Assembly: GCA_031292355.1 (NCBI GenBank)
Contig: JARLHI010000040.1
Location: forward strand, 36,090-100,089
Source: Candidatus Obscuribacterales bacterium
Lineage (GTDB): Bacteria > Cyanobacteriota > Vampirovibrionia > Obscuribacterales > Obscuribacteraceae
Length of the DNA: 64,000 nt
Reading direction: 5' to 3'
Part shown: positions 4,775-61,742 of the stretch, one piece after another
How the letters are laid out: every line of letters starts with the position of its first letter
Numbering within the stretch: the first letter of the stretch is position 1
The notes under the pieces: model-generated
What the model was told of the DNA's origin: nothing
Database searches by the model: none
What the model saw: the letters and a program-made list of their open reading frames with translations, nothing else
Translations under genes and position numbers: made by a program

Positions 4775-5067
4775 AATAGGCAGCCCAGCGCAGACCGCTT
4801 TTTGCAAAAAGTGGCATGCCGGTGACTGGTCAGCTAGCACTCTTTGGGCCGAGAATTGCAAGAGTGCTTGCAATAACTCCTCCTTACAACCTAGCGTGAA
4901 GACATCACTTCGTCTTTCCAATTTTATATTTGAGTCTGCAAAAACAGTAAGCACTCACTCTAATTCCAAACCTCATCAAGCACACCACTGCCTAATGGCT
5001 GTCTGGTAGCCGTCTTTGCACCGTCTGTCGAAGGCCACGCCTTGCCGCTCAATTTAACTTGTCATCG

Positions 5068-5340
5068 TCAATAAGCCCAAATCGAAGGCTTCGGGCTACG
5101 TCGGTGAATCCATGGGGGGTAAACCTGGATGCGATTTGTTTGCAAACGTTTCTGGATTCCAACGCCCAAGAGTTTGGCAGAGTCACCGGCACGGTTGCCC
5201 AGAAGCTTCTTGCCGGCGCGCCGCATATTGAGTTCGTCGACGTGGGTATACGCTATCAAACGGTTGAGGTAAGACGGATGATTCAGCAAGGACTTGAGCC
5301 CACCGTAGGCGCAAATGCTCTGGTGTAGGAGCTTGACCAA
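5068..5340 (-). pseudogene. remnant of a tyrosine recombinase/integrase C-terminus
   Basis: The minus-strand reading gives LKSLLNHPSYLNRLIAYTHVDELNMRRAGKKL, which resembles the XerC/D-integrase box II end (LLGHSS..TT.IYTHV..E.L). Only ~90 aa are open, with a stop upstream. An overlapping + strand ORF (5059..5328) is presumably a shadow. Confidence 0.4.
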
Positions 5341-16726: not shown

Positions 16727-17761
16727 ATGCCTAACATCCACATCATCTGGTCTTTCAACGGTGGCGGCACACGCGGCATCATGCAGGCGCGTGCGGTTCA
16801 ACGTCTTGAAGAACGTCTCGGTACCCAACTTGCATCCATCCAGGGCCTCAAGCATTACTTCATTGGCACATCCACCGGAGCCATTGTCGCTCTTGCGCTC
16901 ACCAAGCCCAAAGCCGATGGCACACCTCTTTACCGCGGTGGTGACATCGTCAATCTCTACTACAACGACAGCCCCACCATCTTCCCCAAAAACTTCTGGC
17001 GCCTGCTGCTTTCGCTTGTTGTTAATTGCGGCAGATATCCAGCGTCCGGCATCGAGTCTGTGTTCAAGAAGTATCTGGGTGGCACCACTCTCGGTGAACA
17101 CATGCACAATGTGATCGTTCCGGCTACGCAGACCGGGCCGATTTTCCAACCCTTTTTCTTCAAGAATTACGACAAAGACGACGCCAAGCGTCAAGCCTGG
17201 TTTGTCTGCAGAGCATCAACTGCGGCTCCGCAGTATTTCCCGCCGCTGGCTGATCCTTCGCTTGGACCGGATGGTTGCTTCATCGACGGTGGCATTGAGG
17301 TCAATGCACCGGCGATTAGCGGACTGGCCGAGGCCATGCTTAAGGCCAATGACGATGACGAATTCATCGTTGTCTCCTTCGGTACCGGAATGTATCTGCG
17401 CTCCTTCAGCTACAAGACGATGTCGCGTGCTCCCATCTGGAAGCTCCTCGGCACCGTTCTGGATATGCTGACCGGCGGTCAGGGATACATCGTCAGTTAC
17501 CAGTTGAAGCTGCTGTTGAACAAGCAGATACCGCAGATGTTCCAGCATCGCGACAGTGCCATGCGGCGCTTCTTCAACTTCGACACGATGATTCCGCCGG
17601 ACGTCGATAGCATCGATGATACGAGCAAAGCTACTTTGGATAAGCTTGTCGCGCTCGCTGACGAGATGATCGATGTCGAATTGAAAACCGACTTCGACGC
17701 GCTCTGTGAGATGCTCAAGAAGATCCACGCCGGGACTTTCAGCGTTAGAACTGGGGTCTAG
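16727..17761 (+). CDS. patatin-like phospholipase
   Basis: GGGTRG oxyanion motif, GTSTG (GxSxG) nucleophile elbow and a DGG catalytic Asp motif (FIDGGIEVNAP). The minus-strand ORFs 16502..17194 and 17216..17770 are antisense shadows. Confidence 0.8.
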   Translation: MPNIHIIWSFNGGGTRGIMQARAVQRLEERLGTQLASIQGLKHYFIGTSTGAIVALALTKPKADGTPLYRGGDIVNLYYNDSPTIFPKNFWRLLLSLVVNCGRYPASGIESVFKKYLGGTTLGEHMHNVIVPATQTGPIFQPFFFKNYDKDDAKRQAWFVCRASTAAPQYFPPLADPSLGPDGCFIDGGIEVNAPAISGLAEAMLKANDDDEFIVVSFGTGMYLRSFSYKTMSRAPIWKLLGTVLDMLTGGQGYIVSYQLKLLLNKQIPQMFQHRDSAMRRFFNFDTMIPPDVDSIDDTSKATLDKLVALADEMIDVELKTDFDALCEMLKKIHAGTFSVRTGV

Positions 17762-17932
17762 AAAATGCAAAGTCAGCGACAGTTGTTCTTATCTCATAAG
17801 ACAACTGGAGCTGACTTTGTATAAACGCAGCGCATGGTGCGTATGCGGCCGCTTGAGATAAGTAATCTCTTGAGTCGACGGTAAGAATTCGGCGCGGTGC
17901 GACCCACCATTGGTTAAGAAGGATATTCTGGA

Positions 17933-18148
17933 ATGACTTTAACGAAGACCAAGAACGTTCAGACTGTCGCTCGCGAAGTGGTCGGTAAGCCCATTCGTGA
18001 GGCGGAAGCCTTCATCACCGAGGCTGGTTTTATCAGCCGCGTGGTGATCGTTCATGGGGTCGGTATTCCCGGCGCTCATGAATATAACGATAAACGCGTC
18101 AAGCTTTTCGTCGAGAACGACGTGGTTTACGACACCCGCGTCGGTTGA
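17933..18148 (+). CDS. potato inhibitor I (MEROPS I13, CI-2/eglin-like) family serine protease inhibitor, copy 1
   Basis: 71 aa ending …RVKLFVENDVVYDTRVG, with VGKPIREAEAFI…; matches the CI-2 fold signature (…VGK..E.A…R.DRVRLFVD…PRVG). No signal peptide. Confidence 0.65.
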   Translation: MTLTKTKNVQTVAREVVGKPIREAEAFITEAGFISRVVIVHGVGIPGAHEYNDKRVKLFVENDVVYDTRVG

Positions 18149-18158
18149 GGAGGTGACA

Positions 18159-18485
18159 ATGTTTGGTCGTAATAAAACCGCCACGCGGGCGCCTCCTGTC
18201 GAGTGCAATGGGCGAATTCTCAATAGAGCCCCCTATCTGTTTGGAGGAGGCTACACCTTCATCACCGTCGCTATTCTGGTTGAACTCCCAGATGGCGGCG
18301 AGGAGGTGGTGTTGGAATATTCAAACAGTGCTTCGGTCAAGGCTCTCGCTTTGTGTAAACCCGGGCACAAGGTCAAAGTCTCGTTGGATCGTGAGAGCTC
18401 TGAAGCTCCGTGGAGTATTCAGAATTTTAAGATTGACTACGACGTCAAGGGTGAAAAGCTTGCCCTTGAGAAACTGACCGGCTGA
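18159..18485 (+). CDS. hypothetical protein (108 aa)
   Basis: ATG 10 nt after the I13 stop, preceded by GAGGAGG. ORF track frame 18054..18485, trimmed to MFGRNK. Confidence 0.5.
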   Translation: MFGRNKTATRAPPVECNGRILNRAPYLFGGGYTFITVAILVELPDGGEEVVLEYSNSASVKALALCKPGHKVKVSLDRESSEAPWSIQNFKIDYDVKGEKLALEKLTG

Positions 18486-18501
18486 GATCAGTCAAACGCT
18501 A

Positions 18502-19080
18502 GTGAAACGGGCGATGCACACTTTAGAATTGGCCGTTTCTTTATGCAGTTGGCACCATCTTTTTCCAACTAAACTTCATTGCTTGTTTATAAACTCTTCG
18601 GTCTATACGACTGAGAAAGACTACAAAGTGTCGATTTTCTCTAACACCGCTGGTGCGGCATTGTGCTTTTTGATTGTGTTTGTCATTTGCGTTGCAGCGC
18701 TTGTGGACTGGCGGCAAGCCCGTAAGGAGCGTGCGGAACTTAGACTGTCCGACGATTTGTGGCGCTTCCCAATCTCGTACAGGGCGCTTCTCAAAGATTG
18801 CGGTGCGTACATGACAGATGACGCTGTGCAAAAATATTTAAAGGCAATAGTCAAAGGCTATGAGGATTCGCGAACTCTGCTCCGAATGGGACAGGTTGAT
18901 CGCGCCTCCAAGCGTTTTGTTTATGTGCAGTGGTGCTTTCACAAGGCTCGCGAAAGTGCAGCTGCAGCAGCTTACAACGCTGAAACGGAATCTCTTTTGT
19001 TGGACGAGGCGGATGTAGACTTCGATGAAGTCGCAAGTTCTAACGCGCTTCTGGCTAGACGTCGAGCGGCCAAACAGTAA
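18502..19080 (+). CDS. hypothetical membrane protein
   Basis: One TM helix (AGAALCFLIVFVICVAALV). Start uncertain. Confidence 0.4.
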   Translation: MKRAMHTLELAVSLCSWHHLFPTKLHCLFINSSVYTTEKDYKVSIFSNTAGAALCFLIVFVICVAALVDWRQARKERAELRLSDDLWRFPISYRALLKDCGAYMTDDAVQKYLKAIVKGYEDSRTLLRMGQVDRASKRFVYVQWCFHKARESAAAAAYNAETESLLLDEADVDFDEVASSNALLARRRAAKQ

Positions 19081-19162
19081 TTCAAACGCGCCTTCTTTGG
19101 TTTTGCAAGCGCCATTTGCATGACCAGAGGAGGTTTCACGACCCCAGGTTGGAGTATAAGAG

Positions 19163-19906
19163 ATGCTGTGTACTAAACATCCCACCACGCTGAAAGGCGC
19201 CGCCGAAATCATGGACAGAGCATGCAGTGACTGCGGCAACCTGACCTACTCCGATTGCCAAATTTGCGCGCAGTGCAGCAAGGGCTATGACGAATGTCAG
19301 CGCTGTCGTGCACCGTTGAATAGTTACGTCGACCCACGCAAGCTCGCCGCATTCACGTCGCCTCTCGCTCAAGAGATTCGTAAAAACAAGCTGCTGGCCA
19401 GGGAAACCTTTCTGACCAAAAAGCATGATGCCGAGCGCAACTTTACTGTGTGCACGGCAGAATATAGAAATCTGGTGCGTGAGCAAATTGCACCACATCA
19501 GCTAATCTGCGAAAAAGCCTGCAAGCCCCACAGAGACAAAGTGGCGGCTGTGAGCGAGTCGCTGGGTGGCGAGCTGGCTGACGACAATTTGATGTTCCTG
19601 CAGAAGTCAGTGATTCATCCACGGCTCAAGGAAGCCATCGAAAAATGCGATGCGGCCTGTTTGTCTATCCAAGATAAATATGAGCATGATGTGAAGGGCT
19701 TCTTCGCGGCGTATCGCAAAGCAATAAGACCGGCGAATGCATCGTTGAAAAGGCAGGTAGCCAACGCTCAAGATGAGATGAATCAGCGAATTCGTTCGCT
19801 GGATGATCAGCTGGAAATCTTGCTATATCGTTCGACAAGAATTCGGTACATGGTCCTCGGTGCCATCAGCGATTTCTTTCGAGGCATTCTTCGTCCAAAG
19901 CGTTAG
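19163..19906 (+). CDS. zinc-ribbon (multi-CxxC) N-terminal domain protein with coiled-coil C-terminus
   Basis: CSDCGN…CQICAQCSKGYDECQRC cluster, then a helical region. Followed by a terminator. Confidence 0.55.
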   Translation: MLCTKHPTTLKGAAEIMDRACSDCGNLTYSDCQICAQCSKGYDECQRCRAPLNSYVDPRKLAAFTSPLAQEIRKNKLLARETFLTKKHDAERNFTVCTAEYRNLVREQIAPHQLICEKACKPHRDKVAAVSESLGGELADDNLMFLQKSVIHPRLKEAIEKCDAACLSIQDKYEHDVKGFFAAYRKAIRPANASLKRQVANAQDEMNQRIRSLDDQLEILLYRSTRIRYMVLGAISDFFRGILRPKR

Positions 19907-19947
19907 CCGCGTCAGGTCAACGTAGTGAAATTGAATGAGCAACAGTG

Positions 19948-19990
19948 AAACGGATGATGCGCAATCTGCATCGTCCGTTTTCTTTTATTA
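19948..19990 (+). terminator. rho-independent terminator
   Basis: 13-bp stem AAACGGATGATGC/GCATCGTCCGTTT (one mismatch) with a 7-nt loop, followed by TCTTTTATT. Confidence 0.65.
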
Positions 19991-20117
19991 CCAGTCGCAT
20001 CCCATTCGCTTCACGGAGCAAATTGGCTGAAATTGGCGGATTCCATGTTTTCCTAATAAACCCTCACACCAAAGGTGGTGCATCACCACGCGATACAAAC
20101 AGATAGAAAGACAGAAC

Positions 20118-20546
20118 ATGTATTCCCGCTTGCAACAATTCGAGACCTGTTTTACCACATTCACCGGGCAGGACTTTTTCGTAGTCTTGTTCTACATGGC
20201 GTTGGCATTTGTTGTCGCCGTCATTTTCTTTGTCGCCAATGAGCTCCTGAATTACAACCTTACGAATCTGGTGCCCCATACCGTCGACCAGGCGCGTGAA
20301 CATCACAATAGACTGAAAGATCGCATTGGCTCGGCACGAACAAACCGCAGCCCTGCGTTTGATTACGATTTTGGAGACAAATTGCTCCTAGCGGTCACCT
20401 TGTGTCTCGATGACGCCGACCGAAAGGTGGCACGCGCTCCTTCGCATATCAAAAGCTATAAGGAAGCGTGGAAAGACGTCAAACTGGCGCTGAGACAGCT
20501 TCGGGAAGTCGAGGCACTCTTCGACTACGTACCCAACGAAGATTGA
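20118..20546 (+). CDS. single-pass membrane protein, unknown function
   Basis: One TM helix (FFVVLFYMALAFVVAVIFFV). 16-nt gap to the downstream QueC-like gene. Confidence 0.5.
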   Translation: MYSRLQQFETCFTTFTGQDFFVVLFYMALAFVVAVIFFVANELLNYNLTNLVPHTVDQAREHHNRLKDRIGSARTNRSPAFDYDFGDKLLLAVTLCLDDADRKVARAPSHIKSYKEAWKDVKLALRQLREVEALFDYVPNED

Positions 20547-20562
20547 CAGTGAGGAGCTAATT

Positions 20563-21660
20563 ATGCAGGAATTGTCGATAGTGCTCAAAGAGCGTCGGCT
20601 AGAGATGAAAGGTCCAAAGGGACTGGAAAGTCTTGAGCTCGCGCAGAATTATTCTCTGACGCCGCTTTCGCGCTTTCTGTTTTCTCAGCTCGGCGCGATG
20701 TTTCTTGTTTCACCATATGTTGAGCCTCGAATTCGGACGAATTTTCAAATCTGTCCGGAGATACGCTCGCTCTTTGCTGGCATGTATGAGTCGCTTCAAC
20801 AAGCTCCTCCTCGATTCTTCTCGTCGGACGATCAGCCGTGGCAACTTCCAACTCTCCGTGAACCTTCGCTTCAGCGAGCAGCTGTTGCTCACGGAGGGGG
20901 CAAGGATTCGCTGCGCAACATCTGGTGGGCTGAAGAAGAATACGGAAGAGAAAACGTCCTAGCAGTACATGTAAGTGGGCTGAATCGAGCGGTTGCAAAA
21001 CGCGAGCATGAATATTGCGATCGTCAACAGAAAGAGTTGGGGTTTCACAACTTCAAATTTGTCGAGCTCAAGAACGGCTCGCGAAGCGCCGGACATGAAA
21101 TCATGCGCGCCAGAGACTTCTTTCTCCTGGCGTTAATCATTCCGGATGCACTCGAGTTTGGAGCTTCCACTGTTATCACCGAGGGCTATGCTGAGACAAA
21201 GGAGAATGAGCCGTTTTCTGGAAAGGTTGAGAACATGCGGTTCTTCAATCAGATATTGAGTCGGCTCAAGATTCCATGTCAGGTCGCCTGGCGCGATAGA
21301 GAAGAAGTTTACGCCGTGAAAGATCTGCTCATTCACCGCAGTGGGTGGCTCGATCACGTCGCCAACTGTTTCACCCCGGCAAAATACTTTGGTGTTTATC
21401 GTAGCTGCTGGGAGCGCAACGCACCATCACTTCGACTCTACGATTCACAGTGTGGCTCGTGTCCAAAATGCCGGACGGTAAATCTGGCGAGGATTCTTTA
21501 CGACAAGCGCACCACTGATAATTTGGCATTGTCAGATGCGCAGTATTTTCTCGCCAACACAAAAAGCTGGATGGGCAGGAATCGGGTCAAATTCGCCGAT
21601 TTCATTGACGGTAGTTTTGGCGAAGAATTTGCCAGAGCCTGTCAACGGTATTCTCGTTAG
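20563..21660 (+). CDS. QueC-like PP-loop ATP pyrophosphatase (adenine nucleotide alpha-hydrolase superfamily) with ~110-aa N-terminal extension
   Basis: PP-loop HGGGKDS (SGGxDS-like). Blocks align to QueC: IMRARDFFLLALI ~ VPGRNILFLTLA, ITEGYAETKENEPFSGK ~ ITGVCETDFSGYPDCR, and C-terminal CGSCPKCRTVNLARIL ~ CGHCAACNLRANGL. No queD/queE/queF nearby. Confidence 0.65.
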   Translation: MQELSIVLKERRLEMKGPKGLESLELAQNYSLTPLSRFLFSQLGAMFLVSPYVEPRIRTNFQICPEIRSLFAGMYESLQQAPPRFFSSDDQPWQLPTLREPSLQRAAVAHGGGKDSLRNIWWAEEEYGRENVLAVHVSGLNRAVAKREHEYCDRQQKELGFHNFKFVELKNGSRSAGHEIMRARDFFLLALIIPDALEFGASTVITEGYAETKENEPFSGKVENMRFFNQILSRLKIPCQVAWRDREEVYAVKDLLIHRSGWLDHVANCFTPAKYFGVYRSCWERNAPSLRLYDSQCGSCPKCRTVNLARILYDKRTTDNLALSDAQYFLANTKSWMGRNRVKFADFIDGSFGEEFARACQRYSR

Positions 21661-21748
21661 CTCAACGGTTTTTTAGATAGAACCTGGCTGCAGTCATCGG
21701 ATTGATGCAGACCAGGTTCCATTGCAGCATGTTTTTGTGGAGACTAAC

Positions 21749-22405
21749 ATGACCCAAAGCAAGCAACCAGCAAAGAATAAAGTGTCTTACGAACATCTTC
21801 GCGAAGTCGGCGACCGTTTAATGGCGAGTCTCAGACCGCATTTCGAAAAGCTTTATCGCGAGCACAATCCTCTCAACGTGACGTTTCTCCATCCGGGTAG
21901 CCTCATGTGCAAACAGTTGCTCTCGAAGGAAGAGCCGTGGATTACTCACGTGCACAAGGGATACTATTTGGTCCGTGCAAATTCGCTATTTGTGGTTCTC
22001 GATGAAGCGCTGCCCGAAGCTGTTTTGCCGAAGGCTTTCGAGGGCATTCCTGTGGATTATGTCGTCTATCATGCTCCGCAAAAGACTGCTTGTTATCGCG
22101 ACAAAAATATGAGAACGCCCGAGTGGAAAGCCGCCATCACCGAAGCGACAGCGCTCTGGTCGCGGCTTTGCGAAGAATTTTACTCTGCTCATGGTGACGG
22201 TGGTTCATGCGTATTGGGTGCTGGAATTGCGGTAAGGTATTTGCCTCCGCGGTGCCGTAACACAACGCTGGAAATTGTTATCCATGACTATCAAGGGTTT
22301 CGCAGCCAATCTTGCGCAGTGCACGAGGCGACCAAAATGGAAGTAATCATTTTTCTCGCAAGCAAGGGCATCGAGGCCGTTTGGGATGCAGGTCATATGG
22401 GCTGA
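21749..22405 (+). CDS. hypothetical protein (218 aa), third gene of the QueC-like operon
   Basis: ORF 21722..22405 re-started at MTQSK after GGAG. No recognisable motif. Confidence 0.5.
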   Translation: MTQSKQPAKNKVSYEHLREVGDRLMASLRPHFEKLYREHNPLNVTFLHPGSLMCKQLLSKEEPWITHVHKGYYLVRANSLFVVLDEALPEAVLPKAFEGIPVDYVVYHAPQKTACYRDKNMRTPEWKAAITEATALWSRLCEEFYSAHGDGGSCVLGAGIAVRYLPPRCRNTTLEIVIHDYQGFRSQSCAVHEATKMEVIIFLASKGIEAVWDAGHMG

Positions 22406-22489
22406 CATCTGCAAAGGTGTTGGAAAGAGCGATCTAAACGAGGGTGTAAGCGGTATTTCCAAAATGCCGCTCACATTTTTTAGAATTGA

Positions 22490-22501
22490 CTTTGCCTAAA
22501 A
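22490..22501 (+). repeat. conserved intergenic 12-mer, site 3
   Basis: Exact 12-mer. Context GAATTGACTTTGCCTAAAAAGAAG. Confidence 0.6.
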
Positions 22502-22965
22502 AGAAGTGAGTTTCACCTAACGTTTGCATCGCTAGTATCTGCTAGGCAGTCCACTATTTGTTCATCAGCGCATACCGGTTTACCTTCGCCAGTCTGATTT
22601 GCTGACCACTTCTTCCATTATCTTGAACTTCTAGGCTGTCGCTTAGCCTTATCTGTGCAGGCTTCTAGGGCTTATGTGTCGATAGCCGCGAGTTCCGTAG
22701 GAGCCGCCTATGAGTTGCGATGTCATCGTCATGACGAGCAGAATGAAGTCACACATCCAATTAAAACTAATTTGCCTGAAAGCTAACTCCATCTTCTAAT
22801 TATCTCGATCATCTAAATCAATCTAGTACTCGTAATGTGAGTGCAGGCTCGCTCGCTAGAGATCTGCTTGGGCATTAGAGACTCAATAATCTCCGCGCTT
22901 TTTTGGAACACAAGGCGCTGAGTGATGAAGACAACCTCGACCACAAACCTTTATGGAGACAAAGG

Positions 22966-23187
22966 ATGACTGATATGAATGATACGACCAACGAAGTGCA
23001 GGCGGTGGCCAGCGAAGCGATCGGTAAGACGCTTCGCGAAGCCGATGCTCTAATCTCTGCTGCTGGATTCGTGAGCAATGTGGCTTTCAATCATGGGAAG
23101 GCCATTCCCGGCATTCTCAACTTCAGAGGCGGGCGCATACAACTTCACGTCAGAGACGACATAGTCTTCGACGCAAAGGTCGGCTGA
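22966..23187 (+). CDS. potato inhibitor I (I13) family serine protease inhibitor, copy 2
   Basis: 73 aa, IGKTLREADALI…GGRIQLHVRDDIVFDAKVG. About 50% identical to copy 1, same family signature. ATG after AAAGGA. Confidence 0.65.
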   Translation: MTDMNDTTNEVQAVASEAIGKTLREADALISAAGFVSNVAFNHGKAIPGILNFRGGRIQLHVRDDIVFDAKVG

Positions 23188-23226
23188 CTGGCGAATAGCT
23201 CGAAAAGCATAAGAAAAGGAACGGTT

Positions 23227-23793
23227 ATGAAAAATGGAAATAGCAAATCCCAGTTAAGATCGCTTAATCGCGCCGCTCATCGCGTGTTTGGCGATTTGTT
23301 CTCTATCGGCGAACCACTTCCGATCAATTCTATCAGCGGCGACGAGCTTTCCAATTGCGATCCAACTGATGGATTGGCGAAGTTTGTTCAAAACTTCCAA
23401 ATGGTCATTTGTCCGGTGCTCCGACACGAACACCTTATGTGCACCTTCACAATGTTGAAGGAAGGAAGTTCCTGGGGACTACACTCGTTCACTTATGGAA
23501 CGTCGACTGAAAGTCAAGTTTTGTTCAGTCAGGTTGCCGAGTGCAAAAAAACTATAGGGCACACTGATTTTCGATTAATCGATTTCAACAGTCTAAATCG
23601 TCAGTGCTTGAGTTATAACACTCCCGCTGGTCTGAGACTTTATTGTCTTCGTTACTGGCCGAACGATCCCGACCTAATTCGGCGCAGCAGAGATCCTATC
23701 GTTTTACTGAACTTTTTCAAAGAAGAGTGGGCGAGAAAGAAGAAGATGATCGACGAGAACACTTCTTCTGATCTCGTTGGCGGCTCTAGCTAG
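23227..23793 (+). CDS. hypothetical protein (188 aa)
   Basis: ORF 40 nt after I13 copy 2. No recognisable domain. Confidence 0.5.
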   Translation: MKNGNSKSQLRSLNRAAHRVFGDLFSIGEPLPINSISGDELSNCDPTDGLAKFVQNFQMVICPVLRHEHLMCTFTMLKEGSSWGLHSFTYGTSTESQVLFSQVAECKKTIGHTDFRLIDFNSLNRQCLSYNTPAGLRLYCLRYWPNDPDLIRRSRDPIVLLNFFKEEWARKKKMIDENTSSDLVGGSS

Positions 23794-23935
23794 TTAGAAC
23801 AAACAAGATGTGTTGCACTGGCTTCGCTCGTGCAGCACATCTTAGACTAGTTCTTTTCAATTTTGAGGTTGCGACTTTGCTTTAAATGATATTTTAAGCA
23901 ATAATTCGTATGAAAAATGAGTATCCGAGCCGGTG

Positions 23936-24472: not shown

Positions 24473-25426
24473 TTACTTGCTGTCCGAACTGGCCAGCAGT
24501 TGACCGACAGCAAAGTCACTGGCGGTGCTCGAATTCTGAGGCACCATCAGCACCTTGGTCGCGGCGACGCCGATCTTGAGCAGCGTATCCATGTCGAGTT
24601 GCTTGTTCAGAATGACGAGGATCTCACGGCGAAGTGAGCGCTTTTCCTCGGCAGTCGCTTTGCCCAGACCGAGCGCTGTGCCGAGCGACTTGATGGAGTT
24701 GGCATAGGCTCTGCCGATTGCGATACGCTGCAGACCCACGCCTTCACCGCCAAGTTTCATCTTCTGCTTGTTGGCAGTCGCTCGGGCAACGGTCTGAATC
24801 TTGTTCGTCTCGCCCTGAGCCTCTGCCGTCAGCTTCTTCTGAGTCTGCTCGTAGACCGCATCACGTGCGTCTTTGACAGTCGTCGGCAGGATGATATTGT
24901 TCAGATTGACGCTGAGAATATCGTATCCATTGTCTTCGAGGAAGTGCTCGAGTTCCTCTCTGACCGCCAGAACGATGCCGGTGGTGTCGGTGAACACCTC
25001 TTCGAGGTCCATTCTGGGCGCCTTGGCGAATGCCACCTTGCCGACATGGGACTCGATTTGCTTGAGGGGCTCGCGCAGATTGAACATGGCTTCGCGTTCG
25101 CGACCCGTCTTGACCCGAATCGCGATGGTCAGTTCGAGTACGACGGGAACCTTGTCCTTTGTGGTCGTGTTGACCTTGATCACGTGCTGCTGACTTTGCA
25201 GCGACCAAGGCGCCGTCAGCGTCTCGAAGATCGGCAGTTTCAGGCAGGGACCGGAACCGACGATCTTGATGAATCTCCCCTGACGAAGCTTCGCCCGGAA
25301 GTGCTTGGGCGGAGTGATTCGAATGCTGCCGATCAGTGTGCATATGAAGAGGATCGCCAGGACGGCTGTGAGACCGAGAGTGACGTAGAAACCGATGTTC
25401 GATGAATCTTCCATTGTAGACTCCAA
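24473..25426 (-). CDS. SPFH/Band-7 (stomatin/flotillin-like) membrane protein, paralog B
   Basis: N-terminal TM, then an SPFH core (…TKDKVPVVLELTIAIRV…, NGYDILSVNLNNIILP…). About 45% identical to the upstream paralog. Confidence 0.75.
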   Translation of the reverse strand: MESTMEDSSNIGFYVTLGLTAVLAILFICTLIGSIRITPPKHFRAKLRQGRFIKIVGSGPCLKLPIFETLTAPWSLQSQQHVIKVNTTTKDKVPVVLELTIAIRVKTGREREAMFNLREPLKQIESHVGKVAFAKAPRMDLEEVFTDTTGIVLAVREELEHFLEDNGYDILSVNLNNIILPTTVKDARDAVYEQTQKKLTAEAQGETNKIQTVARATANKQKMKLGGEGVGLQRIAIGRAYANSIKSLGTALGLGKATAEEKRSLRREILVILNKQLDMDTLLKIGVAATKVLMVPQNSSTASDFAVGQLLASSDSK

Positions 25427-25498
25427 TAGTGCTTGGCTTGAACAGCCGACAGGTTTCGTTGCAGGTTTTCGCTTGTTCTTAGGTCGTGTTTAAGCGAC

Positions 25499-26458
25499 CT
25501 AGGCTGCGAGAACCCCCTTGTCGGTGACACCGAGGTTGTGCTGGAACACCAGAACCGTGCCGGTCGAAGTGCCGACCTTCACGAGAGTCGCGAGCTCGAG
25601 CTGCCGATTGAGCAACTTGGTGATCTCGTCGTGCAGTTCCTTCTTCTCTTCCTCGGGAGCGTCTTCAAGTTCGAGAGCTTCGCTCAGTTCGTTGATGGTG
25701 ACGACAGAAGCATCTGCAATCGCCATACGCTCTTCGCCGACGCCTTCACCGTCGAGCTGCCGTTCGATCTTGTCGGCTTCGGCCGCTGCGAGAACCAGAA
25801 CGGCTGCTGTTTCACCGGCAGCCTTTGCGGCGATCTGCAGCTGGGTGTTCACGTAGACCGCATCGCGCGACTTCTGAACCGAATCCGGCAGGGTGATGCC
25901 GTTGAGGTTCACCGAAAGAATGTCGTAGCCGTTGTCGTTCAGGAATTTCGAGATATCCGTCGCGATAGCGGCGATGACCTTGCCAGAGTCGCCGTAGAGG
26001 GTGTCGAGATCCATGGTGGGCACGAGCGCGAGTGCGACTTTGCCAACATGGGACTCGATCTGCGGAACGGGATCGGCCAGGTTGAACATCGCTTGTTCTT
26101 CTTTGCCGCGCTGAACCCGGATGGCGACATTGAGCAGAAGCGAAACCGCGACCTTGTCCTTGGTTGTCGTGGTGACGGTGATCGCATACTGGACGCTCTG
26201 CAGCGAGAAGGGCTCCGAGAGCGAGTGCAGAATCGGCACGACGATGCACCAGCCCTCATGGACGATCTTGACGAAGTTGCCCATTCGCATCTTAGCGCGG
26301 AACGTCATGGTCTGCGTCTTGCGAACGAATATGGCGATGAACAAGGTGGCGGCGACGAGCACCGTACCGAGTAGAAGTATGGCTGTCTGAAAAAGTTGCA
26401 TGAGAAGACTCTCCTTAAGGTTGGTTGATTTCTCTTCTGTGCTCTTTTTATTTGGCAT
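25499..26458 (-). CDS. SPFH/Band-7 membrane protein, paralog A
   Basis: Same architecture as paralog B (…TKDKVAVSLLLNVAIRV…, NGYDILSVNLNGITLP…). Confidence 0.75.
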   Translation of the reverse strand: MPNKKSTEEKSTNLKESLLMQLFQTAILLLGTVLVAATLFIAIFVRKTQTMTFRAKMRMGNFVKIVHEGWCIVVPILHSLSEPFSLQSVQYAITVTTTTKDKVAVSLLLNVAIRVQRGKEEQAMFNLADPVPQIESHVGKVALALVPTMDLDTLYGDSGKVIAAIATDISKFLNDNGYDILSVNLNGITLPDSVQKSRDAVYVNTQLQIAAKAAGETAAVLVLAAAEADKIERQLDGEGVGEERMAIADASVVTINELSEALELEDAPEEEKKELHDEITKLLNRQLELATLVKVGTSTGTVLVFQHNLGVTDKGVLAA

Positions 26459-30913: not shown

Positions 30914-33088
30914 TTACACTACGTCGGTCTTCGGGGCGCTGGAAGCGTCCGTAGAAGCCGGCGCAGCACTGGCGTCAGCATCAGGAGCCGGAGCGACTGT
31001 GGGCTTTGCGGCAACTGCGGCGGGAGCACCACCGTCGATACCAGCGAGCTTGGGCAGCAACATGGCGCCGATGAGGTCGGCCATTGAACCACCGCCATTG
31101 CCACCACCGGTGGAAATTTGCGGCACGATAGGCACCCTGATCTCGACGAGCGCGCGCGTCTGTTCGAGACGAGCAACGTTGTCTTGACCGAGTGCGTCGG
31201 ACTTCTTGCGATAGGCTTCGGCTTCGGCAGTACCAGTCGCGAGAACGACGGCCGCTTCGGCTTCACCCTTGAGCTGAATTGCTTTCGCTGTTGCAACGCC
31301 GACTGCTTCGATGCGGGCAGCTTCACCAGAAGCCCGTTCCCTGGCAGCAAGAGCGTCGTTCTTGGCGATGAGGATGCCGGCTTCAGCCTTCCGGATGGAT
31401 GACTGCTGATCGGCTTCAGCCTTGGTGTTCTCGAGCGTGACGCGCGCCACTTCGGCGAGCTGCTGCGAGGTGTACATCTCCTTGCGTTGATCGGCAAGGT
31501 TTTTGGCCGACTGCGTATCCATCAGGTCCTTGGGCAGGTTGATGTTGGTGATCAAAACGGCAATCACCTCGATACGATAGTCACGCAGCGCGTTCTGCAC
31601 CTCGACGAGGGCACTGGCTGCTTCTTCGGCACGCTTCTTCATGTAGTTCAGCGCCGGCGACTTGGAGACCTGCGAGCGGAAAATGCCGTCCACCTGTGGG
31701 TGAATGACGTTTGCTTCCAGGGCATCGATGTCACCGAGCTTGGAGATGACGTAAGGGACGTTCTCCGGCAGCACGCGGTAGTTGACCCGAACTTCGACGG
31801 TCATCTCGAAGCCGTCATTGGAGACGACCATGAAGGGGTCGAAGTAGTTCGTCTTTTGGTCTTCCTTGGCATTGGCCCACTCGACGGTACGAGCAGACGT
31901 CGGCCATGGAATGACTTTTTCCGCGTAGGGGTTGATAGCATACTTGGCCGGCTGCAGCACTTCGCTCTGCAGACCGCGTTCGCCTCGATTGACGACATGA
32001 AGTGCGCGACCACCGCTGTTAAGCCGGTGTTCGGCGGTGTCGGTGGCCGACCCGTCGATTGTCGTGGTAGATGGTTCTGCCTTGCTGGTGGGCTCGCTGC
32101 CTGTGTAGGCAATGCGGGCGGCCACGAAGCCAGGAAGCACCTCGTACAGTTCCTTCATTTCGATTTCGAAAGCATCGGTGTTGATGTAGTATCGACCGGC
32201 ACCAAGCACGCGATCTTGTGGACCAGCAAAGCCGCCGAGGGTAACAAACTGCTGCGCGTCGGAGAAGATGTTGTCGGTCGCGGCAGGAGTGGTGGCACAT
32301 ACTTCGCCAGCAGGCAGCGGTCGGCCGATCTTGGCGATCACGATACCGACCTTGCCCTTCGGCACATCGGTGGCGGGCATCGTCTTGACGTCGAAGACTG
32401 CGGTGTTGATGTTGTAGACACCGGGCGGCAGAATCTCGATCTGTCGACCTTGCTGTCCGCCATTCTTGATGAAAGTGGCAGCATCCTGGAAGCGGTCGTG
32501 ACCTTCGACCTTGTCGCCGAGAATCTGACCGGCAGACGTCCGTAAGGGCTTACCGTCCTTGGCGTAAACGAGACCGACCTGACCTTCGGGAATGACAGTC
32601 CGATCGATGATGTCGATCTTGAACTGCAACGGATGGATGAACTTGGCGCCAGCCGTCAGCAGCTTGAGCTGCGTGCCGACGATGCCGCCGTTTTCCATGA
32701 AGCCGTTGACGTCCTGGAAGTTGTCGTGATGATCGCCAGCGGCGTCATCGGCGAAGTTGCGACCAGCCGGAAGCGGCTTGCCATCGAGCGCCGTGACGAC
32801 AGCCAGTTTTCCCTCGGGCACGATGGTGATGTCTTTCATCTCCTTGATGCGCCGATTGGGATAGGCTACGAAGTGCCATCCCTGCTTGTAGTAAGTGCGT
32901 AGCACGCCGATTTCGTTGTCGCGAGCGAGGATGCGACCGGTTTCGATGCTCTTGCCCTTGAGGGTGTTTTCGAGCAATGCGAGCTTGCCGCTGGGAACCT
33001 TGCGGACCCAACGCGTAGCGAGCCAGAGAAGCGCTGCCAGAACGACTACACCGATTCCGGTGTAGATGCCGAGATTAACGAAGTTCAT
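30914..33088 (-). CDS. large flotillin-like SPFH protein with three N-terminal ~65-aa repeats and an Ala/Glu-rich coiled-coil
   Basis: N-terminal TM. Three repeats of VPEGK.GVV.A.DGKPL…H..FQD…F…GG…. SPFH core (MTVEVRVNYRV…, YRIEVIAVLITNINLPKDL). Flotillin-like EA-repeat coiled-coil. Pro/Ala-rich tail. Confidence 0.7.
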   Translation of the reverse strand: MNFVNLGIYTGIGVVVLAALLWLATRWVRKVPSGKLALLENTLKGKSIETGRILARDNEIGVLRTYYKQGWHFVAYPNRRIKEMKDITIVPEGKLAVVTALDGKPLPAGRNFADDAAGDHHDNFQDVNGFMENGGIVGTQLKLLTAGAKFIHPLQFKIDIIDRTVIPEGQVGLVYAKDGKPLRTSAGQILGDKVEGHDRFQDAATFIKNGGQQGRQIEILPPGVYNINTAVFDVKTMPATDVPKGKVGIVIAKIGRPLPAGEVCATTPAATDNIFSDAQQFVTLGGFAGPQDRVLGAGRYYINTDAFEIEMKELYEVLPGFVAARIAYTGSEPTSKAEPSTTTIDGSATDTAEHRLNSGGRALHVVNRGERGLQSEVLQPAKYAINPYAEKVIPWPTSARTVEWANAKEDQKTNYFDPFMVVSNDGFEMTVEVRVNYRVLPENVPYVISKLGDIDALEANVIHPQVDGIFRSQVSKSPALNYMKKRAEEAASALVEVQNALRDYRIEVIAVLITNINLPKDLMDTQSAKNLADQRKEMYTSQQLAEVARVTLENTKAEADQQSSIRKAEAGILIAKNDALAARERASGEAARIEAVGVATAKAIQLKGEAEAAVVLATGTAEAEAYRKKSDALGQDNVARLEQTRALVEIRVPIVPQISTGGGNGGGSMADLIGAMLLPKLAGIDGGAPAAVAAKPTVAPAPDADASAAPASTDASSAPKTDVV

Positions 33089-40959: not shown

Positions 40960-41661
40960 TCAGTCCTGCTCGTGATAGACGATCAGAAAGAAATCACCGA
41001 TCTTGATGGCGTCACCATCTTTGAGTGCGACCGTTTGTCCTTTGGCGATTTCGACGCCGTTGACCTCCGTGAAGTTCTCGGTATCGCATTGCAGTTCATA
41101 GCCGCCGGCCGGTGTGCGATGAAAATAGCCATGCACGCGAGAGACGGTCTGGTCGCCCAGGATCGGGATAACCGGACTCATGCGACCGAACGGTACACGT
41201 ACGCCGCTCAGTGTGTAGCCCGTGCTCGGCACTGTGGGCGCCACCACATCATCAGGACGCAACGGACGCGGATCGAGATCCACGGAAACTTCGATGTAGC
41301 AGAGTTTGCAACTGGTGTTGCCAGCCGTGTTGTCTGCATTCGCCTGGGTGGAAGCGGCCGGCTGCGCGATTGCAGGCGCTTGCACTGCCGGTTGCGGTTC
41401 GGATGATGGCGCAAGCGCAGGTGTGTGCGTATCCGCATCGTCGACATGAACGACGGTGCTTGCTTGCACATTGGTGCTTGCGTCGTCAGTGGCAGGGTCG
41501 TGAACGCTTCCATCCGAATTTAATTGAACGATCGGGTCTGCGTCGCTGAAAGCATGTCCGCAGCCGCTCGAACAGAATAAGTCGTCCACCTCTGCGATCG
41601 TCTTGCAAACAGGGCAGATACGTCCCTGTTTGAGCGGAGACGAAGTCTCGTTGCTGGTCAT
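40960..41661 (-). CDS. zinc-ribbon + FHA-domain protein
   Basis: N-terminal CPVCK…FCSSGCGH. C-terminal FHA (…PFGRMSPVIPILGDQTVSRVHGYFHRT…NGVEIAKGQTVALKDGDAIKIGDFFLIVY). Start re-placed at MTSNE after GAGGAG. Confidence 0.75.
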   Translation of the reverse strand: MTSNETSSPLKQGRICPVCKTIAEVDDLFCSSGCGHAFSDADPIVQLNSDGSVHDPATDDASTNVQASTVVHVDDADTHTPALAPSSEPQPAVQAPAIAQPAASTQANADNTAGNTSCKLCYIEVSVDLDPRPLRPDDVVAPTVPSTGYTLSGVRVPFGRMSPVIPILGDQTVSRVHGYFHRTPAGGYELQCDTENFTEVNGVEIAKGQTVALKDGDAIKIGDFFLIVYHEQD

Positions 41662-41745
41662 AAAAAACTCCTCATTGGTCAAGGGGCAAGCGGACGAACA
41701 CTTGAGTGCTCGTCCGCTCATGCTGTCGCTTTTCGTAAGGAGTCC

Positions 41746-43131
41746 TTACGACTGAGTGGTGGTCGCAGCGGCGGCCGTGGTGTCGGCCGGAGCCGCCGTC
41801 GGTGCAGCGACTGCGCGCGTGCGACGAACGCTCGAACCGGCGTTGATCTTCATGCCGGTCGCGGCGTCCGTGTTCTTCAGCTTCACCTTGCCGGTTGCAG
41901 CGTCCAGAATCTCAACGAATTCCTTCAGCTGCTCAAGCAGATCGATGTCGCCGTCTTCATGCGCTGTCTTGACCAGATCGCCGAGAATATCGCTTGCGCC
42001 GCGGGTGTTGCCACCCTTGAGCAGATCGCCTGCTTCACGCATGCGGCGCTGCGAACCCTCGATGCCCTGAGCCACCTTGACGCCGCGGGTGACGCGCTGG
42101 CTGAGTGACGCTTCCTCCGAGTTGCGCGCCCACTGAGCCTTGATCGGGAACGGATCGCTCTTCACGAGCTGCCCGCCGACTTTGTATTCGAACCAGATTT
42201 TGGCTGCCATCACCGCTGGTGCGTTGCTCGGACGAGCGACTTCGAAAGCGAGGTAGAACAGACGCGTTTCGGCATCCCAGGAACCGAGGTTGACGCGGAT
42301 GAACTTCTCGCCTTCCTTGCTGCAGGCGTTTTCCAGGTCGAGGCTGACCGGGGAGCGCACGGCGATGTCCAGGATGTCGCCCATGTTGAACTTCTGGATC
42401 ACCATGGTCACCCCAGACAGAGCCTGACTGGCTGCCTGAGCTACCATGCCCTCGAAGTCGGCCTTGACTTCGGAAGGATTGGCGAGCACCACCGGCGGTG
42501 CCGAGCCGGTGCCGTCCGAGATCAAGCGCAGCTTGTCCATTTCCCAGTCGGTGCCGACGCCGCGAGCGAGGACTCGCAGAATCTGCCCCTGCTTGGCGAG
42601 ACCCTGGTAGGCAACGAGCTCTTCGCCGACTGAGACGCGATCACCGTAATCACCATCGGTGAGCAAGCCGGCGAAGCCTTCGGTCACTTTGCCGGCCTTT
42701 GCAAGAGCGCAGTAGTCCTCCCGGAAGAGCTGCAGACCGCCGGCTGTCTGGGTCGAACCCTCGAGCGCAGGCAGTTTCTGGCGCAGGGCGTGCTTGGCCG
42801 CCTCGATGTTCTGCGGCGTCGCGAGGGCCGGATGGAAGAGCCGGTGCTTGGACGAGCCGAAGAGGTAGACCGCGACGTAGTTCTGCGGCGACTTGAGCAT
42901 GGCGTCGAGGAAGGCGCACGCCCCTTCGACAGCCGCTTGAATCTTGGCGCCCTTCATGGAGACCGAGATATCCAGAATTACGGCCGCCAGACGCGGAGGC
43001 TGCACCGTCGCTGTGGCATCGAAGCCGACAGGGGTAACGAAGAAGGCGGCGTCCTGACGCGTGGCGTCGGCCTTCAGGATCTCGTTGATGTCGGTCTTGA
43101 TTTGCAGCGAGGGGGAGGCGATGTTTGACAT
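41746..43131 (-). CDS. von Willebrand factor type A (VWA) domain protein
   Basis: MIDAS motif AAVILDISVSM…, then YLFGS. Long C-terminal region. Start re-placed at MSNIASP after GGAG (the ORF track TTG start at 43218 is unlikely). Confidence 0.7.
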   Translation of the reverse strand: MSNIASPSLQIKTDINEILKADATRQDAAFFVTPVGFDATATVQPPRLAAVILDISVSMKGAKIQAAVEGACAFLDAMLKSPQNYVAVYLFGSSKHRLFHPALATPQNIEAAKHALRQKLPALEGSTQTAGGLQLFREDYCALAKAGKVTEGFAGLLTDGDYGDRVSVGEELVAYQGLAKQGQILRVLARGVGTDWEMDKLRLISDGTGSAPPVVLANPSEVKADFEGMVAQAASQALSGVTMVIQKFNMGDILDIAVRSPVSLDLENACSKEGEKFIRVNLGSWDAETRLFYLAFEVARPSNAPAVMAAKIWFEYKVGGQLVKSDPFPIKAQWARNSEEASLSQRVTRGVKVAQGIEGSQRRMREAGDLLKGGNTRGASDILGDLVKTAHEDGDIDLLEQLKEFVEILDAATGKVKLKNTDAATGMKINAGSSVRRTRAVAAPTAAPADTTAAAATTTQS

Positions 43132-43226
43132 ATTTGGCTCCATCAGTGTCATTGAGAATTGGTGATTGTCTGCAAGGAATTTGCAGACTCGATCACATTG
43201 GATACGCACGAAAGTCAAGCAGGCTT

Positions 43227-44399
43227 TTAAAAGTTGATCACAGCGATGGTGTTGTTGTCTGCACCACTTGCTCTTTTGAGGACAGCCTCGGCAAAGCCCA
43301 TGGCGCTCCTCGGATTGCTCGCAAATATCTTGGCGAACTCGCCGGACTGGGGTAAGTCCATATCATGGACGTCATTCCAGGCTCCGTCAGAACAGCCGAA
43401 GATAGACACAAGGGTTGAATCGATGGTCACAGTCGACGTCGACGGTGCATAGATCTCACCCTCAGGCACTTCACCAAGGCATTGCGTCATCGTATGCAAT
43501 TCCTTAGTAGTGAACTTCTTGTAGGCTTCTGCCGCAGAGACACCCGTCTGGTCAATCATCTCGTTGAGAAGGGTATGGTCGCGCGACAGCAGTTTGTCGG
43601 AGTAACCGCAACTCGCAGTCGAGTCACGATAGATGGCATAAAGGCGACTATCGCCGCACCACCCTAGAGACGCCACACCATCATCGATGAAGGCGACGAT
43701 GATGGTGCAAGCTGGAGCAGAGAAGTCAGCGTCGGCGTTGAGTTCGGCTGGGACTTTCAAAACCGCCGACTGGGCAGAATTGATAGCCGCAAGCACGAGT
43801 CCTTCACTGCCCTTCTGGCGACTGAGAGCAGCAATTCTCAGCGTTGCCGATGCGGCTCTGCACGCTTCTTCCGAGGCTTGTTGAGGAGCCTTAGAAGAAG
43901 AGACACCGTCTGCCACCACGAACCAGCTGATTCTCTTGCCGTCGACTACAACGGAGTCCATCGCCGCGTAATCTTCGTTGCGAGAATGGCCGATCGTGGG
44001 ATTGCCGAGATTGCTTCGTGCCACTATATTCGGTGTGACTTCGATGAAGAAGTCATCGCGACATGGTAGCACTGCTTGAACCCAGCACTTCGTGCAAAAG
44101 CCATCTTCATCGAAATTTGATGAATCGGCATTGCAGCCGACACACTTTGGCGCAATATAGTGACGGATGTTATCCGCCTCCTCTGGCACCTGGATGGCGA
44201 CTGCTGCCGCTTGCTCTGTTTTGGGCGGTTCGACTTCGACAATCGTCGCTGCCGCCGGAGTTGTCGTTGCCTTTTCGATCGAGCCGGCATCGTCTTGTGC
44301 CGAGTCGTATTCTTTGCCACACTTCGAGCAGAAAAGATCTCCTGGCTCACGCGTTGGACACGGGTCTCGTCGTGCATTGAGGTAAGGACAGGGCTCCAT
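43227..44399 (-). CDS. zinc-ribbon + PP2C-family Ser/Thr phosphatase
   Basis: N-terminal CPYLN…CPTRE…FCSKCGKEY. PP2C motifs GHSRNEDYAA, VVADGVSSS, GDSRLY, CSDGAW, DNNTIAVI. Confidence 0.75.
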   Translation of the reverse strand: MEPCPYLNARRDPCPTREPGDLFCSKCGKEYDSAQDDAGSIEKATTTPAAATIVEVEPPKTEQAAAVAIQVPEEADNIRHYIAPKCVGCNADSSNFDEDGFCTKCWVQAVLPCRDDFFIEVTPNIVARSNLGNPTIGHSRNEDYAAMDSVVVDGKRISWFVVADGVSSSKAPQQASEEACRAASATLRIAALSRQKGSEGLVLAAINSAQSAVLKVPAELNADADFSAPACTIIVAFIDDGVASLGWCGDSRLYAIYRDSTASCGYSDKLLSRDHTLLNEMIDQTGVSAAEAYKKFTTKELHTMTQCLGEVPEGEIYAPSTSTVTIDSTLVSIFGCSDGAWNDVHDMDLPQSGEFAKIFASNPRSAMGFAEAVLKRASGADNNTIAVINF

Positions 44400-44408
44400 T
44401 GATGCACC

Positions 44409-60560: not shown

Positions 60561-61658
60561 ATGCTAGTTCAAATGGCTATCGGCGACGCTTACGGCGCCG
60601 GTTTCGAATACGCCAGTGCCGAATTCGTCCTGGCAAATCACAGGCTTACGATGTATGTGCAGCATCCCAAGCATAAGCTGGTGCCAGGCGTTTACACGGA
60701 CGACACTCAAATGTCGATCGCCAACGCTGAGGTCATTCTCGCCGGGATACTTTCTCGGGAAGCCTTCGCTCAAGCTTATGTCGATTGCTTCAAGCGCGAT
60801 CAACGCGAGGGCTATGCAAGTGGCTTCTACAACTTTCTGTGTAGCGTCAAGGACGGTGAGGAATTCTTGTCACTGATGAAGCCTATCAGCGACAAGAGCG
60901 GTAGTGCCATGAGGGCTTTGCCGTTTGGAATTTATCCCGACATAGAAGTTGTGATTGCTCTTGCTACTTTGCAGTCGACGATCACCCACAATAGTTTCCA
61001 CGGCATCAACGCGGCAGTGGCTGCTGCTTTGATGTCACACTATTTTCTCTATCAGCTTGGTCCCAAAAGCGAACTCGGTGCTTTCATCGAAAAGCACGTG
61101 CCGGGTACGTGGGCGGAACCATATACGATACCTGTCGCCCAAAAGGGCTGGATGTCCGTTCGTTCGGCCATCACGGCTATCATGGGCAACGATTCAATGA
61201 CTGAGATTTTGCGCGCCTCTGTTGCCGTTACGGGTGATGTGGATACGGTTGCCGCACTCGCTCTGGGGGCAGCGGCGGCTTGCAGCGAGGTCAAACAAGA
61301 CTTGCCCGAGTTCCTTGAAAGGGATCTGGAGAATGGCGCTTACGGGCGAGATTTTCTCGCTGACTTAGACGCCAAGTTGATGGCCAAAATGGCAGATCTC
61401 AAAGCCGAAAAAGCTGCGTCACAGCAAGTCGCAGTCAGCGGTCCGCGAATCCTCGTGGTGCAGTCGCCAGAACAGTGGACGGGAGCGATAAACAGTCAGT
61501 CGTTTCTGGAAATTCCGACTGCGCTGGATGTGCAGAAAGAAGAAAATGCCTGGTTTGCAGCTGGAGGTGATTCCAGTGGCAAATCTTTCGTCGAGCATTT
61601 GCTCGCTCTGGGCGCGACGCGGCTGACCGTCGAAGTCTGGAATATCAACTACCAATGA
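60561..61658 (+). CDS. ADP-ribosylglycohydrolase (ARH/DraG family) with ~85-aa C-terminal extension
   Basis: N-terminal GDAYGAGFEY and YTDDTQMS metal-site motifs of ARH. C-terminal ~85 aa not assignable. Confidence 0.7.
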   Translation: MLVQMAIGDAYGAGFEYASAEFVLANHRLTMYVQHPKHKLVPGVYTDDTQMSIANAEVILAGILSREAFAQAYVDCFKRDQREGYASGFYNFLCSVKDGEEFLSLMKPISDKSGSAMRALPFGIYPDIEVVIALATLQSTITHNSFHGINAAVAAALMSHYFLYQLGPKSELGAFIEKHVPGTWAEPYTIPVAQKGWMSVRSAITAIMGNDSMTEILRASVAVTGDVDTVAALALGAAAACSEVKQDLPEFLERDLENGAYGRDFLADLDAKLMAKMADLKAEKAASQQVAVSGPRILVVQSPEQWTGAINSQSFLEIPTALDVQKEENAWFAAGGDSSGKSFVEHLLALGATRLTVEVWNINYQ

Positions 61659-61742
61659 TTGAAGTGCAGGCACTCTCATCTCGTGAGTGCCTGCTAGTCA
61701 AATCATGTGCCTGCGTTATTTAACTAGCCGGAGTAATTGAGA

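Follow-up and report, generated by a model that had tools for sequence, protein, structure and literature searches.

A 64,000-nt stretch of contig JARLHI010000040.1 from a Candidatus Obscuribacterales bacterium (hereafter the window) carries two genes, here called copy 1 and copy 2. Their products are best explained as small, disulfide-free, leaderless proteins with the wedge fold of CI-2 and eglin c, belonging to a family that lies between the protease inhibitor families I13 and I78. The evidence for homology to the I13/I78 superfamily and for the CI-2 fold is good, and we hold both with high confidence. The most probable function, which we favour at slightly better than an even chance, is the intracellular canonical inhibition of serine endopeptidases by paralogues of different specificity. 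CI-2 and eglin c, textbook models of protein folding and of the standard inhibition mechanism, are usually associated with plants and leeches. MEROPS and InterPro occasionally list I13-type sequences from bacteria. The superfamily, its fold and its mechanism are known already. What is new is modest, namely the two leaderless Obscuribacterales members and their place in a branch from bacteria and phages that has gone unannotated and has a hypervariable P1 residue.

Copy 1 and copy 2 (coordinates in Table 1) share 31 of 66 residues (47%) in an ungapped BLASTP alignment with an E-value (E) of 1e-22. This agrees with a preliminary description of the window, which had presented two open reading frames (ORFs) at these positions as homologues of potato inhibitor I about 50% identical to each other. 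The motifs it had quoted are present as well (VGK...EA..., R(V/I)(K/Q)L(F/H)V, and VG at the extreme C-terminus), and an uncharacterised gene indeed follows closely behind each copy. Reading of the sequences revealed no hydrophobic N-terminal stretch in either protein, which therefore have no signal peptide, as had been supposed; neither contains Cys. Public assemblies call the start of copy 2 at its second ATG, and both ATGs are retained in the orthologue at locus L017. In NCBI, a hypothetical protein from a Candidatus Obscuribacterales metagenome-assembled genome is identical to copy 1.

Orthologues of both copies occur in other metagenomes at 82–89% identity (for copy 2, protein P0006 at 89%). 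Against these, the ratio of nonsynonymous to synonymous substitution rates (dN/dS, Nei-Gojobori) is 0.20 and 0.22 for copy 1 and 0.17 for copy 2. Because the orthologues are this similar and dN/dS is about 0.2, copy 1 and copy 2 are real genes under purifying selection. One could suspect spurious ORFs or decaying pseudogenes, given that the ORFs are short, that copy 2 lacks any family hit and that one allele, at locus L009, has an in-frame deletion. However, the low dN/dS, the intact orthologues in several metagenomes, the plausible ribosome-binding sites and the confidently predicted fold leave this explanation next to no probability. GC content shows no anomaly.

Copy 1 reaches 25.4 bits on the Pfam hidden Markov model PF00280 (potato_inhibit; E 2.3e-5, profile positions 6–59 of 64), which passes the gathering threshold of 24.5 bits. 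By sequence alone its PDB matches are all barley CI-2, the best at E 0.013. The assignment to the CI-2/eglin c family I13, originally made for both proteins, therefore stands for copy 1 by profile and by fold, but copy 2 gave no hit in a Pfam scan at E≤10. Since copy 2 has no Pfam hit of its own and lacks two of the three buttressing basic residues, it is assigned through paralogy. Neither protein gave any score at E≤10 on PF11720 (Inhibitor_I78, threshold 23.6 bits), and neither a full-length match to the PASTA profile (PF03793) nor a PASTA fold was found for them.

With a profile built from the two paralogues plus their orthologues, HMMER was run exhaustively against 1.8 billion cluster representatives and yielded 70 proteins at E<1e-3. 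When 68 of the 70 were scanned against Pfam at E≤0.01, potato_inhibit was found in 26, PASTA in 17 and Inhibitor_I78 in nine. A 38-sequence single-domain alignment (A3) served as family profile. In the PDB it matched CI-2 (E 1.4e-4), BGIT, CMTI-V, LUTI, HPI, ATSI and the I78 inhibitor AFUEI, and it matched PASTA proteins over the first helix only. Four of the 38 members roughly reach the PF00280 threshold and none reaches that of I78. Judged by these scores, the family falls in the gap between the curated I13 and I78 models, and it is because most members lie just under both thresholds that nearly all of them are called hypothetical. No close relative was confirmed among GTDB species-representative genomes scanned with a narrow-alignment profile: of three loci, one (L004) was rejected as a chance match inside a PAS histidine kinase and the other two match residues 13–46 only.

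The AlphaFold2 model of copy 1 made with the 38-sequence alignment has a predicted local distance difference test (pLDDT) score of 92. It comprises a helix (residues 21–30), a strand (34–40), a long loop (41–54; pLDDT 91 over residues 41–50) and two further strands (55–61 and 64–70). Among PDB structures, the first 50 Foldseek matches of this model are all I13 inhibitors or AFUEI, and CI-2 is 33–39% identical across the structural alignment. As modelled, copy 1 has the CI-2 fold, a helix on a mixed beta-sheet with an extended interstrand loop, so that the alpha/beta wedge anticipated for it is borne out. A model from a 5-sequence alignment was poor (pLDDT 64) and was discarded.

The window proteins resemble the I13 inhibitors (CI-2, eglin c, CMTI-V, LUTI, BGIT) in their length of about 65–70 amino acids (aa), in the absence of disulfides and signal peptide, in the wedge fold with its V-G-K-x-x-x-E-A helix start, in the position of the reactive loop and in R-V-G at the exact C-terminus. 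They differ in their bacterial host, in the missing Trp of W-P-E-L, in a C-terminal hairpin that is two residues shorter and in an additional conserved Arg (Arg36) on strand 1. With PASTA they share an N-terminal V-G-x-x-x-x-E-A-x-x-x-L-x-x-x-G helix motif that gives partial matches (profile positions 5–28). The likeness to I78 resides in the relatives that match PF11720 and in the wider family consensus, R-V-x-x-x-D-G...T-M-D-Y-R-x-D-R-I-N-L, which resembles the I78 pattern. AFUEI is disulfide-bonded and secreted, whereas the window proteins are leaderless and free of Cys. Bacterial I78 proteins as such are known already, since MEROPS lists homologues from Bordetella (PMC12620975).

The predicted reactive loop reads G44-I-P-G-A-H49(P1)-E-Y-N-D-K-R55 in copy 1 and A-I-P-G-I-L(P1)-N-F-R-G-G-R in copy 2. 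The HMMER alignment of copy 1 with CI-2 puts His49 on residue 59 of CI-2, and the ungapped alignment of the paralogues extends the assignment to copy 2; both support the initial reading of P1 as His in copy 1 and Leu in copy 2. For loop statistics, 139 non-redundant domains were aligned to the family profile. P2 (equivalent to CI-2 Thr58) is Thr in 118 of them, P1' (Glu60) is Asp in 120, P2' (Tyr61) is Tyr or Phe in 120, and the equivalent of CI-2 Arg65 is Arg in all 139 and is kept in both copies. P1 itself is Met in 46 domains, Arg in 38, Leu in 9, Ala in 9, Cys in 8, Thr in 8, Lys in 6 and Glu in 5. Its column entropy of 2.8 bits, against 0.9 and 0.7 for its neighbours, is among the highest of the conserved core. 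At the position of CI-2 Arg67 the family has Asn (111/139), and the strand-1 Arg36 is near-invariant (136/139); this Arg may assume the buttressing role of Arg67. Gly is the final residue in all 83 domains that reach the end, and at their stop codons copy 1 ends in T-R-V-G and copy 2 in A-K-V-G. A hypervariable P1 between conserved scaffold residues is the classical hallmark of canonical (Laskowski) serine-protease inhibitors. The P1 variability amid a conserved scaffold is hence the strongest indirect argument that the family inhibits proteases.

Within this family, the window proteins are, to judge from their loops, atypical and divergent members. In A-H-E-Y-N-D-K-R-V-K of copy 1, P1' Glu and P2' Tyr are as in CI-2 (T-M-E-Y-R) and Arg55 is kept. 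The corresponding I-L-N-F-R-G-G-R-I-Q of copy 2 has Ile at P2, Leu at P1 and Asn at P1', and copy 2 was placed in a G-I-x-N subgroup of the family. The G-A-H-E-Y loop is unchanged in three sequences of the copy 1 orthologue group, and P1 is Thr (P0007) or Asn (P0008) in patatin-associated orthologues of copy 1 elsewhere.

If the two proteins act by the standard (Laskowski) mechanism, the exposed loop between strands 1 and 2 (residues 43–54 of copy 1) would dock in a substrate-like manner into the active-site cleft of a serine endopeptidase, either a subtilisin (S8) or a chymotrypsin-like (S1) enzyme, and would be hydrolysed extremely slowly while bound. Inhibitory activity, cytoplasmic site and target class are what we infer here; the cytoplasmic location would follow from both proteins being leaderless. 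With His49 at P1 of copy 1 and Leu at P1 of copy 2, the specificities of the two should differ, and it is a reasonable inference that their target proteases would differ, as had been suggested. Copy 1 would be the regulated, RNA-led member of an operon, and copy 2 a diverged duplicate in a strain-variable segment.

Several observations weigh against this proposal. Neither window protein keeps the P2 Thr (copy 1 has Ala, copy 2 has Ile) or the second scaffold Arg, CI-2 Arg67 (Lys and Gln, respectively), and copy 2 has Asn in place of the near-invariant Arg36. His is an uncommon P1 residue. The PF00280 score of copy 1 exceeds the threshold by only 0.9 bit, and copy 2 is missed by the Pfam model. 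No serine endopeptidase gene was found in the 64-kb window, where an M20 metallopeptidase is the only peptidase seen. In the literature searched, we found no report of measured inhibition by a member of the bacterial and phage branch and no paper on bacterial I13 homologues. Finally, the copy 1 orthologue at L009 (7401–7523) lacks 31 codons in frame, encompassing the helix and strand 1, so that a 40-aa ORF is left behind an intact RNA leader; copy 1 is therefore dispensable in at least one lineage.

The family comprises about 70 cluster representatives and takes three forms: lipoproteins of about 115 aa with a lipobox, tandem-repeat or fusion proteins (with META, SLH, PepSY or pacifastin-like parts, and also with PASTA), and leaderless proteins of 60–70 aa. 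Relatives retrieved by word index have no informative names (hypothetical, one evidently spurious 'LpoB', or none), and their precomputed Pfam domains amount to a single I78 hit. One lipoprotein member lies in an ordinary chromosomal setting with no protease adjacent. Four secreted lipoproteins (P0009, P0010, P0013 and P0014) have two or three I13/I78-like domains in tandem, every one of which has a T-x-D-(Y/F)-(R/Q) loop, and may be multi-headed inhibitors; P0009 ends in a pacifastin-like Cys-rich segment.

This spread argues against the idea, implied by the preliminary description, that the two genes are a rarity of eukaryotic origin, because the proteins most closely related to theirs come from prokaryotes and phages and form a sizeable family without annotation. 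Recent horizontal transfer of an I13 gene from a plant or animal would fit the identity to CI-2, which is about as close as that of bacterial relatives outside Obscuribacterales (29–42%). However, the roughly 70 relatives have prokaryotic features (lipoboxes, fusions to META, SLH, PASTA and PepSY, phage contexts), and the family-specific residues Arg36, Asp39 and Asn at the Arg67 position are missing from CI-2 and eglin c at the aligned positions. Moreover, orthologues are syntenic across diverged Obscuribacterales lineages, and GC content is normal. The plant-type W-P-E-L-V-G motif was not found among the aligned hits at E<1e-3, which does not fit a recent eukaryotic import either. We regard such an import as very improbable; the similarity ranking indicates that the two proteins branch with the bacterial and phage family.

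The leaderless form also has a phage connection. All four leaderless members outside Obscuribacterales that we looked up (P0089, P0049, P0108 and P0113) are encoded on phage-like contigs of 44–300 kb, together with a T4-type baseplate protein, homing endonucleases of the GIY-YIG and HNH types and small ORFs in long same-strand runs. At loci L012, L015, L016 and L021 the member gene lies at 5001–5204 or 5001–5186. These proteins have 61–67 aa, mostly Arg at P1 and a V-T-R-D-Y-R-T-D-R loop, and are possibly phage-encoded protease inhibitors. Relatives are also found on IMG/VR viral contigs (L023–L027), and BFVD matches of the copy 1 model are proteins of about 70 aa from uncultured phages and giant viruses, with TM scores of 0.7–0.8.

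It is thus conceivable that phages chiefly use the leaderless form as a weapon against proteases of the host, or that hosts use it in turn against phage proteases, and that the Obscuribacterales copies are domesticated versions in the same role. Such an origin in phage conflict is compatible with protease inhibition and would specify its biology. The P1 changes among patatin-associated orthologues (His, Thr, Asn) and the variable segment around copy 2 would suit it. Yet the cluster in the window contains no phage gene or PHROG hit, and dN/dS of about 0.2 gives no sign of gene-wide positive selection. The Obscuribacterales subtype was not found either, neither in the IMG/VR scan of viral contigs nor in a tblastn search of GenBank phages. 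We consider this origin rather improbable.

The immediate neighbour of copy 1 suggests another reading. The copy 1 start codon lies 171 nt past a patatin-like phospholipase gene, and in all relatives examined, even where protein identity falls to 54%, patatin lies directly 5' of the orthologue of copy 1. The phospholipase matches the PADLOC effector model PDLC00758 nearly end to end (E 3.5e-42) and thereby resembles CapV, an effector lipase of cyclic-oligonucleotide-based antiphage signalling (CBASS). On the other hand, its PDB matches include patatin as well as CapV structures, it is equally plant-patatin-like, and it scores 108.7 bits on the NCBIfam equivalog CBASS_lipase, under the cut-off of 200. 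Near the patatin gene we detected no cyclase (CD-NTase) and no other CBASS or PADLOC component, and there was no PADLOC hit in nine neighbouring proteins. As a curiosity, patatin and potato inhibitor I, both named for potato tuber proteins, adjoin here in a bacterium.

Accordingly, the fold might be reused without protease inhibition, as a binding or regulatory module that is partner or antidote of the patatin or of co-transcribed proteins. Besides the patatin adjacency and its CBASS-like character, the degraded loop scaffold (P2 and Arg67 equivalents lost), the lack of a protease gene nearby and the mosaic region behind the patatin, which is reminiscent of an accessory or defence island, could be explained in this way. 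However, the whole upstream block (a cysteine desulfurase-like aminotransferase, adenylate kinase, a TPR protein, a deaminase and the patatin) is syntenic in relatives, so that the adjacency is weak evidence of a functional link and not independent. Copy 2 has no patatin neighbour, the loop is kept within orthologue groups, and patatin is a lipid hydrolase; no I13/I78 protein is known to inhibit one. This reading therefore seems rather unlikely, and intracellular protease inhibition remains our preferred interpretation.

Copy 1 is apparently the first gene of an operon that continues with the 108-, 188- and 247-aa genes up to a terminator-like hairpin. These three, like further neighbours of 142 and 218 aa and the 188-aa gene after copy 2, have no match in Pfam, PHROGs, PADLOC, NCBIfam or the PDB. 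The gene after copy 2 is unrelated to those following copy 1, and the two partner genes thus do not form a shared two-gene module. Downstream of copy 1, the cluster 18539..23867 is a strain-variable mosaic. L007 lacks 18539..20561, L009 lacks 20622..23867 (the 3.2-kb segment holding copy 2), and L011 has diverged 188-, 247- and 365-aa genes and no 108-aa gene.

The spacer between patatin and copy 1 is more conserved in relatives than the coding sequence. It contains a four-hairpin motif of about 90 nt (Table 1), preceded by a long hairpin that is conserved at L007 and L009, partial at L011 and missing at L010. The RNA fold of 17762..17940 has a minimum free energy of -65.8 kcal/mol (z -5.1 against shuffles). 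The motif consensus is AAACGCAGCGC-[variable hairpin]-AUGCGGCCGCUUG-[hairpin]-CUUGAGCCGACGGUAAGAAAUCGGC-nnn-GUGCGACCCAC. Scanning metagenomes for its pattern revealed the element in five more loci, with up to three copies per contig (3.6–4.8 kb), and a covariance model added three copies in those loci, for a total of 15 instances in 10 distinct loci, a small sample from few lineages.

The alignment of these instances is paired in 97% of cells, with compensatory changes at 9 of the 25 pairs. On four of five measures none of 500 shuffles came up to the real alignment (the fifth, the number of further pair types, was unremarkable), and slid-register controls were far lower. The element stands roughly 15–160 nt 5' of a candidate start codon, where one is identifiable. 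The ORFs behind it are mutually unrelated (small membrane proteins, a lipoprotein, a hexapeptide-repeat protein and a 373-aa protein), and the further loci have no protein-level similarity to the window. A search of Rfam 15 at E≤1 with the window and four other motif loci gave no match to the motif, only chance miRNA or THF-II hits elsewhere. The window contains a single instance; upstream of copy 2 and its orthologue the motif is absent, with only a short GCGACCCACC remnant in L017. We therefore propose the motif at 17822..17911 as a candidate cis-regulatory RNA. As copy 1 seems to head an operon and has a structured RNA leader, its expression is probably regulated.

Table 1. Features around copy 1 and copy 2 (window coordinates) and instances of the RNA motif in other loci (coordinates of the respective locus)
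Feature	Position	Strand	Remarks
Patatin-like phospholipase (CapV/plant-patatin type)	16727..17761	+	PF01734
Long hairpin	17765..17822	+	directly after patatin stop codon
Four-hairpin RNA motif, about 90 nt	17822..17911	+	candidate cis-regulatory 5' leader; ends 22 nt before copy 1 start codon
Copy 1	17933..18148	+	71-aa leaderless CI-2/eglin-like protein
Unannotated gene, 108 aa	18159..18485	+	10-nt gap after copy 1, contains GGAGG
Unannotated gene, 188 aa	18514..19080	+	one transmembrane segment; 28-nt gap
Unannotated gene, 247 aa	19163..19906	+	Cys-rich N-terminus; 82-nt gap
Terminator-like hairpin	19947..19981		terminator scan
Copy 2	22966..23187	+	73 aa, or 70 aa from ATG 22975; divergent paralogue
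Unannotated gene, 188 aa	23227..23793	+	39 nt past copy 2
RNA motif, L007	1645-1734		
RNA motif, L009	7284-7373		
RNA motif, L010	9825-9949		
RNA motif, L011	1626-1714		
RNA motif, L028			3 instances
RNA motif, L030			2 instances
RNA motif, L032			3 instances
RNA motif, L033			
RNA motif, L034			

A bolder combination of these elements would make the two copies intracellular, P1-diversified serine-protease inhibitors in virus-host conflict, directed at the maturation proteases of phages or at protease-based effectors of defence. A riboswitch-like RNA at 17822..17911 would turn on copy 1 and would also control unrelated small membrane or secreted proteins in other bacteria. This is a long shot; if true, it would amount to a new class of regulatory RNA and a new physiological role for the CI-2 fold. 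Apart from that scenario, the locus shows the CI-2 fold and loop architecture to be spread through bacteria and phages, and a family-based profile would annotate many small ORFs. If the proteins are active inhibitors, the leaderless forms would be rare cytoplasmic canonical inhibitors in bacteria, and those carried by phages might interfere with proteases of the host. The RNA motif before copy 1 is a separate lead for RNA biologists.

Some other genes of the window are worth recording. Between the two copies, a 365-aa protein (20563..21660, plus strand) has a PP-loop-like GGGKDS motif and a C-terminal C-x2-C-x2-C, and is weakly similar to QueC/LarE-like ATP pyrophosphatases (Pfam E 0.023; QueC-like PHROG E 0.0014); the searches gave nothing stronger for it. 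A pair of genes of 365 and about 220 aa at 60561..62405 was considered as a duplicate of the pair at 20563..22405; BLASTP found no similarity between them, so the matching lengths are coincidental. On the minus strand, 40963..46712 holds a cluster of a PknG-like Ser/Thr kinase (rubredoxin, kinase and TPR parts), a PP2C phosphatase and an FHA-domain protein, flanked by large proteins of 502, 490 and 674 aa without Pfam match. Within 9 kb of the minus strand (24473..26458 and 30917..33088) there are also three SPFH/Band 7 genes, of which two are paralogues of about 317 aa in tandem and the third encodes a 724-aa protein with Band 7 in its C-terminal half.

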